A DNA stretch of 896 nt, from assembly GCF_003334765.1 (NCBI RefSeq), contig NZ_QOWT01000094.1; one strand, written 5' to 3'. The notes under the pieces were generated by a model, which had not been told where the DNA came from, made no database searches, and was given only the letters and a program-made list of their open reading frames with translations. The DNA is from Escherichia coli (GTDB lineage: Bacteria > Pseudomonadota > Gammaproteobacteria > Enterobacterales > Enterobacteriaceae). Numbering within the stretch: position 1 is the stretch's first letter; every line of letters starts with the position of its first letter. Made by a program: the position numbers and the translations under genes. Shown here one piece after another: positions 1-280 of the stretch.

Positions 1-18
1 GGTTTAATGCGCCCCGTT

Positions 19-94
19 GCCCGGATAGCTCAGTCGGTAGAGCAGGGGATTGAAAATCCCCGTGTCCTTGGTTCGATTCCGAGTCCGGGCACCA
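19..94 (+). tRNA. pheV: tRNA-Phe (anticodon GAA), complete 76 nt with encoded 3' CCA; enterobacterial pheV/pheU type
   Basis: Read directly: GCCCGGATAGCTCAGTCGGTAGAGCAGGGGATTGAAAATCCCCGTGTCCTTGGTTCGATTCCGAGTCCGGGCACCA. The 7-bp acceptor stem GCCCGGA/TCCGGGC pairs, the D-loop has AGCTCAGTCGGTAGAGC, the anticodon loop is flanked by stem GGGGA/TCCCC with GAA at 52..54, and the T-arm has GGTTCGATTCC. From memory this matches E. coli tRNA-Phe. pheV and pheU are identical in sequence, so the symbol is ambiguous between the two loci. Confidence 0.95.
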
Positions 95-105
95 AATTCA
101 TATCA

Positions 106-131
106 ACGGACCTCCACGGAGGTCCGTTTTT
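106..131 (+). terminator. Rho-independent terminator of the tRNA-Phe transcript
   Basis: A perfect GC-rich inverted repeat, CGGACCTC (107..114) pairing with GAGGTCCG (119..126) around a 4-nt loop, is followed immediately by TTTTT (127..131). It lies 12 nt downstream of the tRNA 3' CCA. Confidence 0.7.
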
Positions 132-137
132 CATTCC

Positions 138-161
138 AGGACGCCACGATTTAAGCGTCCT
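138..161. repeat. Inverted repeat (7-bp arms, 10-nt spacer) in the tRNA-integrase intergenic region; possible protein-binding site or RNA hairpin
   Basis: AGGACGC (138..144) and GCGTCCT (155..161) are exact reverse complements separated by CACGATTTAA. No T-tract follows, so it is not a typical intrinsic terminator. Confidence 0.35.
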
Positions 162-223
162 GCCTCCAAATCAATTCTACCGAACTCAACCAGATTCCCC
201 CCACATCAACCTCATTGTGTGGG

Positions 224-229
224 TATAAT
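224..229 (+). promoter_or_regulatory. Candidate sigma70 -10 hexamer (TATAAT) for the integrase gene
   Basis: A perfect TATAAT at 224..229 lies about 62 nt upstream of the integrase ATG. No convincing TTGACA-like -35 is seen at 17-bp spacing (CCACAT at 201..206 is a poor match). The call rests on the -10 element only. Confidence 0.3.
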
Positions 230-280
230 TGTGGGCATACCCCAGTTCGACAGAATTTGTACCCTCTTTAACGCATTCAG

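Follow-up and report, generated by a model that had tools for sequence, protein, structure and literature searches.

An island-borne terminator-like hairpin between the tRNA-Phe gene pheV and a P4-family integrase gene at the left junction of GI-pheV in Escherichia coli

Introduction

Genomic islands with P4-like integrases, other than the one considered here, also occupy tRNA-Phe genes, where they are bounded by 22/23-bp imperfect repeats of the tRNA 3' end and differ in cargo. The island at pheV in E. coli 55989, 55989_GI-pheV, has been described as a 110,510-bp element (3,339,841-3,450,350) of the intP4 type, and its attR sequence, TTCGATTCCGAGTCCGG-CACCA, is published (PMC11537424 Table 1). 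Elements of this general kind carry the segment of the target gene that lies 3' of the crossover, and crossover subsites have been placed in the anticodon loop, in the T-loop and at the T/acceptor junction (PMC4383910; bioRxiv 10.1101/2020.11.02.365908). The consequences for transcription have been described for ICEKp1 of Klebsiella pneumoniae, whose integration at tRNA-Asn displaces the tRNA-asn terminator to the far end of the element and affects int transcription; the tRNA promoter also drives int, in one transcript with the tRNA, and 5'-UTR stem-loops only attenuate this transcription (PMC13023037).

Here we analyze an 896-nucleotide stretch of E. coli DNA (the window, to which all positions refer unless a locus record is named) that runs from a tRNA-Phe gene into an integrase gene. 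We conclude with high confidence that the window is the attL of GI-pheV, made when a P4-family integrase joined the attP of the element to the 3' end of pheV. The exchange probably took place within positions 88-94, and the island terminator at 105-131 would now end the pheV transcript and shield int, which would be expressed from its own weak promoter.

Results

E. coli 55989, O104:H4 outbreak strains and some others contain the window at 100% identity. Because the gene order in 55989 is speC, yqgA, tRNA-Phe and a 420-amino acid tyrosine integrase, the tRNA gene is pheV and not pheU; the window is the yqgA-pheV-integrase junction, the attL of GI-pheV in E. coli 55989/O104:H4. The complete tRNA-Phe(GAA) gene, with encoded CCA, occupies 19-94 on the plus strand (ARAGORN; Rfam tRNA, 68.3 bits), and a scan of the window against Rfam detected nothing besides this tRNA. 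It is preceded by a chromosomal pre-tRNA leader (1-18, plus strand) that is identical in alignments with K-12 pheV and pheU. The integrase gene is co-oriented with the intact tRNA gene directly upstream (tRNA end at 94, int start at 292, both on the plus strand); its 5' part, 201 codons at 292-896, runs off the window, and the full gene in 55989 is found at L002 6292-7554. The encoded protein is 55.4% identical to P4 Int over 97% of its length and contains the Arm-DNA-bind_3 (PF13356), Phage_int_M (PF22022) and Phage_integrase (PF00589) domains. It matches NCBIfam PRK09692 with E = 1e-74, yet remains under the curated cut-off of that family.

Alignment with K-12 pheV, where there is no integrase and yghD lies downstream, gives identity from position 1 through A94 and unrelated sequence from 95 on. 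The native terminator of K-12 pheV, AACCCGCC-CACAA-GGCGGGTTTTT (-19.5 kcal/mol), differs from that in the window. At the far end of the island in 55989, 110.5 kb away, there is a 22-nt partial copy of the tRNA gene, TTCGATTCCGAGTCC-GGCACCA (L007 10530-10551), which corresponds to window 72-94 minus one G (22 of 23 nt) and is directly followed by the K-12-type native terminator and then by yghD. These far-end coordinates and the attR sequence agree with PMC11537424 Table 1. The break at 95 relative to K-12 pheV, together with the native terminator at the far end, therefore sets the chromosome/island boundary at 94|95, and the DNA from 95 on is island. The native pheV terminator has been displaced by 110 kb, together with the far-end repeat. 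The attL copy of the 23-bp repeat, TTCGATTCCGAGTCCGGGCACCA (72-94, plus strand; identified from the far-end copy in 55989 and PMC11537424 Table 1), spans the T-loop, the 3' strand of the T-stem, the 3' acceptor strand, the discriminator base and the CCA, and its start coincides exactly with the first base of the T-loop (72).

A sequence-only reading of the same DNA had described a complete tRNA with CCA followed by a strong terminator, and this description holds (tRNA at 19-94 by ARAGORN and Rfam, stem at 105-128, T-run at 127-131). It had also predicted an att core at 70-131 overlapping the tRNA 3' end. The core is real; its extent is 72-94 only, as the interval 70-131 merges the repeat (72-94), a 10-nt spacer (95-104) and the terminator (105-131), and only 72-94 recurs at the other end of the island. 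Positions 95-131 are island arm, not core. The suggestion that the tRNA 3' end and the terminator are element-derived is borne out for the terminator, which is absent from empty pheV; for the tRNA it would apply to at most ~7 nt. The comparison that this reading had proposed with an island-free pheV places the end of identity with K-12 at A94, with another terminator from 95, so that the stretch 95-290 is not identical to the native downstream region, and the matching partial tRNA copy that it had expected at the other end of the island is the one at L007 10530-10551. Overall, this earlier interpretation is supported.

Of 5426 complete E. coli genomes, 1580 show pheV empty and arranged as in K-12, and in 3041 the window-type island left arm is joined to yqgA-pheV; many of these genomes are related, so independent events are fewer than such counts suggest. 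Along its 110 kb, the island of 55989 contains pic, Ag43, two clusters for type VI secretion, defence genes and toxin-antitoxin genes, CbtA/CbeA among them. The tRNA genes of pheU and pheV are identical, including the 18-nt leader, and the block at 95-208 is ~97% common to pheV in the window and pheU in K-12, a similarity that might also be produced if pheU-like sequence had come to pheV from the other tRNA-Phe locus by gene conversion or segmental duplication, and not by site-specific integration. We give this explanation next to no credence, as the two repeat copies are separated by the 110-kb insert with pic, the type VI clusters, Ag43 and the toxin-antitoxin genes, the repeats are precise fragments of the tRNA, the empty site is equally precise in the 1580 genomes, a full-length P4-family integrase is present with P4-like repeats on both arms, and the structure of attR contradicts it. 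This is the arrangement expected from recombination, by a P4-family tyrosine integrase, between an attP carried by the element and the 3' end of chromosomal pheV.

The first island-borne bases, delimited by sequence comparison, form the 10-nt spacer (95-104, plus strand) between the tRNA end and the terminator. The island-borne intrinsic terminator occupies 105-131 (plus strand), with a stem at 105-114/119-128, a loop at 115-118 and a T-run at 127-131. Folded as RNA, it gives a 10-bp stem with 6 G-C pairs and a 4-nt loop at -17.6 kcal/mol; 200 shuffled sequences folded at a mean of -7.0 kcal/mol (z = -5.0), and none of the 200 was as stable. A G+C-rich hairpin directly before a U-tract, here the five T's at 127-131, is the sequence pattern of an intrinsic terminator. 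The hairpin is missing from empty pheV and accompanies this integrase module everywhere the module was found, even after non-functional partial copies of the tRNA. Hairpin and T-run are thus part of the P' arm of the island, along with the arm repeats at 217-240 and int at 292. With the native terminator 110 kb off, the pheV transcript would need a new end, and the island hairpin would supply one 10 nt past the CCA. We infer that the island hairpin now ends the pheV transcript and would shield int from the strong tRNA promoter, and that int would instead depend, like that of P4, on a weak promoter of its own that overlaps the arm repeats. Just past the terminator there is a second perfect hairpin, CAGGACGC/GCGTCCTG, with an 8-bp stem and a 10-nt loop (137-162, plus strand), also in the island arm and without a T-run. 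Like SL1-SL3 of ICEKp1, it may be one more stem-loop of the int leader.

The pheU locus of K-12 was considered as an island-free reference and rejected. At pheU, sequence ~97% identical to window 1-208 is present in K-12 and most E. coli, and in K-12 the match extends to position 227 (94.7% over 1-227) and then jumps to the last ~200 nt of int at 69% identity. This int 3' end is the annotated pseudogene yjdQ. The remnant has ATA in place of the ATG, an internal deletion and a deletion of one arm repeat (L004 1935-2551, pheU to cadC). Because a decayed integrase of the same type is present, K-12 pheU is not an island-free site. The sequence-only reading had named pheU beside pheV for comparison, and a match of ~97% over 95-208 at a site with such a remnant does not speak against an island origin of this sequence. 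A search of K-12 for an exact second repeat between pheU and cadC found none.

Two observations could nevertheless be taken to mean that 95-208, including the terminator, is the ancestral downstream region of a tRNA-Phe gene, and that the junction lies further right (at about 208-290) or that the integrase does not mark an island edge: the ~97% match of window 1-208 at pheU in K-12 and most E. coli, and the K-12-type remnant block adjoining cadC in 5218 of the 5426 genomes, a set in which many members are related. We regard this as highly improbable. The window is pheV, and its sequence parts from that of empty pheV at 95; at attR, the native pheV terminator is intact; the K-12 pheU block itself continues into the decayed int/yjdQ; and in strains with a large pheU island the block is preceded by a partial tRNA copy that begins at window position 72. 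The boundary is accordingly kept at 94|95. In K-12, the window-type hairpin is the only terminator-like element after pheU, and the pheU terminator is probably the same element-type terminator, present as a fixed fossil.

The record of phage P4 has a 20-bp core ending at the CCA of tRNA-Leu, tandem 12-nt arm repeats 54-77 nt to the left and 113-136 nt to the right of the core (TTGGGGGCATAA, TTGGGGGCATCT), and the -10 hexamer CATAAT on the junction of the right pair. In the window, the tandem 12-nt repeats GTGTGGGTATAA and TTGTGGGCATAC (217-240, plus strand) are candidate arm-type integrase-binding sites that lie 123-146 nt to the right of the core, and TATAAT (224-229, plus strand) is in the place equivalent to the P4 int promoter -10, CATAAT. 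The right arm in 55989 contains CTGCGGGTATAA and TTGAGGGTACAT (L007 10455-10478), 52-75 nt to the left of the repeat. A P4-derived arm pattern had 3 matches in the window against 0.94 expected, a number equaled by 9 of 200 shuffles, and the statistic for a window-derived pattern is circular, the pattern having come from the window itself. Because the motif statistics are circular or modest, the case for the candidate arm sites is made by the tandem register, the position and the matching right-arm pair. A sigma-70 scan of the window found no promoter and no good -35 hexamer, and the putative int promoter is therefore placed solely by the positional homology of TATAAT with the P4 -10. Judged by its sequence, this organization is a P4-type attP split into attL and attR.

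Further repeats were found in the same region. A 14-nt inverted repeat (173-186 and 244-257, 86% complementary) flanks the arm repeats and the TATAAT. There is also a core-like direct repeat, 83-97 GTCCGGGCACCAAAT against 157-171 GTCCTGCCTCCAAAT, with 80% identity, and a weak minus-strand match to the P4 arm pattern at 158-169 overlaps the second core-like copy. This copy at 157-171 may be due to chance or may be a vestigial site.

The missing G of the far-end repeat bears on where strands are exchanged. The same right arm together with the one-G-short repeat is present at pheV (55989, BL21) and at pheU (Z1323CEC0017, 2013C-3513, OkiPb01679, DE17), where the flanks of the pheV and pheU sites are unrelated, and the short repeat is also found in a right-arm sub-family that is ~10% diverged. 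The first arm family occurs in 1808 genomes; of 57 full-length matches in a sample spread over these, 55 had the short repeat length, and the exceptions, with a full GGG on the same right-arm family, are the attR copies of NIPH17_0036 (L019) and Z247 (L020). A second arm type has the repeat variant TTTCATTCC...GGGCACCA, at pheU and in a tandem junction at pheV, and a third has ACGATTCC...GG-CACCA. What varies in the left part of the far-end repeat is thus tied to the element and not to the locus.

The usual overlap length of this enzyme class is seven base pairs. The largest block common to the one-G-short core and the native pheV attB is GGCACCA (88-94, plus strand), which begins after the indel and ends before the A/C difference at 95. 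The repeat variants suggest that strand exchange takes place within this block, the putative overlap region. With exchange within 88-94, at most 7 nt of the tRNA would therefore be element-derived, and the tRNA body to ~87 would be chromosomal. The full GGG in NIPH17_0036 and Z247 counts against a model in which the element core is always short. Slippage in the G-run, or selection for mismatch-locked islands, could be a repeated source of the short repeat.

A crossover further left, at the T-loop or the T-stem/acceptor junction (about 72-87), would make the 3' part of the tRNA, up to 16-23 nt, island-derived, in line with the sequence-only reading, and the missing G would then be a later decay of attR. 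The identity block does start exactly at the first T-loop base (72), two attR copies of this arm family retain GGG, and a G-run is prone to slippage; published subsites place exchange to the left of the G-run (Islander, PMC4383910), and mismatched repeats have been argued to stabilize islands (PMC11537424). We consider this placement a serious but unlikely alternative. The one-G-short repeat is tied to one right-arm family at two loci with unrelated flanks and to the ~10%-diverged sub-family, and the second arm type has its own multi-base variant at both loci. Moreover, with such a crossover, excision would leave a defective tRNA with GG, and the variant could not travel with the element. Exchange within GGCACCA remains our preferred placement. 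A synthetic attP (right arm, core and left arm) was searched against E. coli genomes; no circular or plasmid-borne attP was found, and the search recovered only arrangements of attR beside a remnant and tandem-array junctions.

Other arrangements at the tRNA-Phe genes were also seen. At pheU of strain SW07164, identity ends at the CCA and a distinct hairpin with a T-run follows within ~10 nt (L009 3095-3140), with an unrelated integrase ~1.6 kb downstream (L009 4743-5927), which is consistent with a different inserted element. At pheV of FDAARGOS_1253, the native K-12-type hairpin follows the CCA, and divergence from K-12 begins only past the hairpin (L008 3095-3300), where there are an IS110 fragment and kps capsule genes and no integrase. 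Strain 23CRST017 has a tandem island array (L010 3880-4230). In tandem arrays, the window-type terminator and a full-length integrase come after a partial tRNA copy, with no tRNA gene there. In MSB1_1D, the K-12-type remnant at pheU comes after a longer partial tRNA copy, which begins in the anticodon region at window position 46 (L011 4001-4163); by its sequence, this copy implies that another integrase class, presumably with an anticodon-loop site, also uses pheU.

Discussion

Annotations should place the island boundary at 94|95, after the last base of pheV. The hairpin that follows pheV in island-bearing strains (~56% of complete E. coli genomes, a share to be read with the relatedness of the sampled genomes in mind) is mobile-element DNA and not the native terminator, which in these strains is found after the far-end repeat. 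K-12 pheU, with its decayed integrase module, is unfit as an empty reference. Elements at tRNA-Phe genes each appear to bring their own terminator, which would probably set how much transcription from the tRNA promoter enters int.

Much of this anatomy was known. The island boundaries and attR have been published (PMC11537424), as has the displacement of terminators by tRNA-integrating elements (PMC13023037). The word terminator does not occur in PMC11537424 (0 occurrences), and the exchange of the pheV terminator is thus not stated there. The terminator exchange and the 7-bp exchange site are modest refinements of a well-known kind of junction. As a generalization that could fall either way, we tentatively propose that P4-family islands at tRNA-Phe genes carry a portable terminator 10 nt past the 7-bp exchange site GGCACCA, so that the host terminator is swapped, no tRNA body is given by the element and int is insulated, the opposite of ICEKp1, and that the pheU terminator of K-12 is an element fossil fixed across E. 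coli.

With the GI-pheV of PMC11537424, the window shares the locus, strain lineage, island size and attR, and it represents the attL end of that island, with no difference in anatomy. The resemblance to the attP-int region of P4 at leuX (tRNA-Leu) includes the end of the core at the tRNA CCA, 12-nt arm repeats in tandem that share the consensus TTGxGGGCATAx and lie at nearly equal distances on both sides of the core, an int promoter -10 on the junction of the right-arm repeats (here TATAAT, by position), and int directly to the right of the core, co-oriented with the tRNA. The two differ in target, which is tRNA-Leu for P4 and tRNA-Phe here, in cargo, which is an 11.6-kb satellite phage for P4 and a 110-kb pathogenicity island here, and in the gap from core to int, 151 nt in P4 and 197 nt here; there is no terminator-like hairpin between core and int in P4, whereas a strong one lies 10 nt past the core here. 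As in ICEKp1, the native tRNA terminator has been moved to the far end of the element, and int lies ~160-200 bp past the tRNA, co-oriented with it, with stem-loops between. Unlike ICEKp1, a canonical hairpin with a U-tract directly follows the tRNA here, which predicts near-complete termination.
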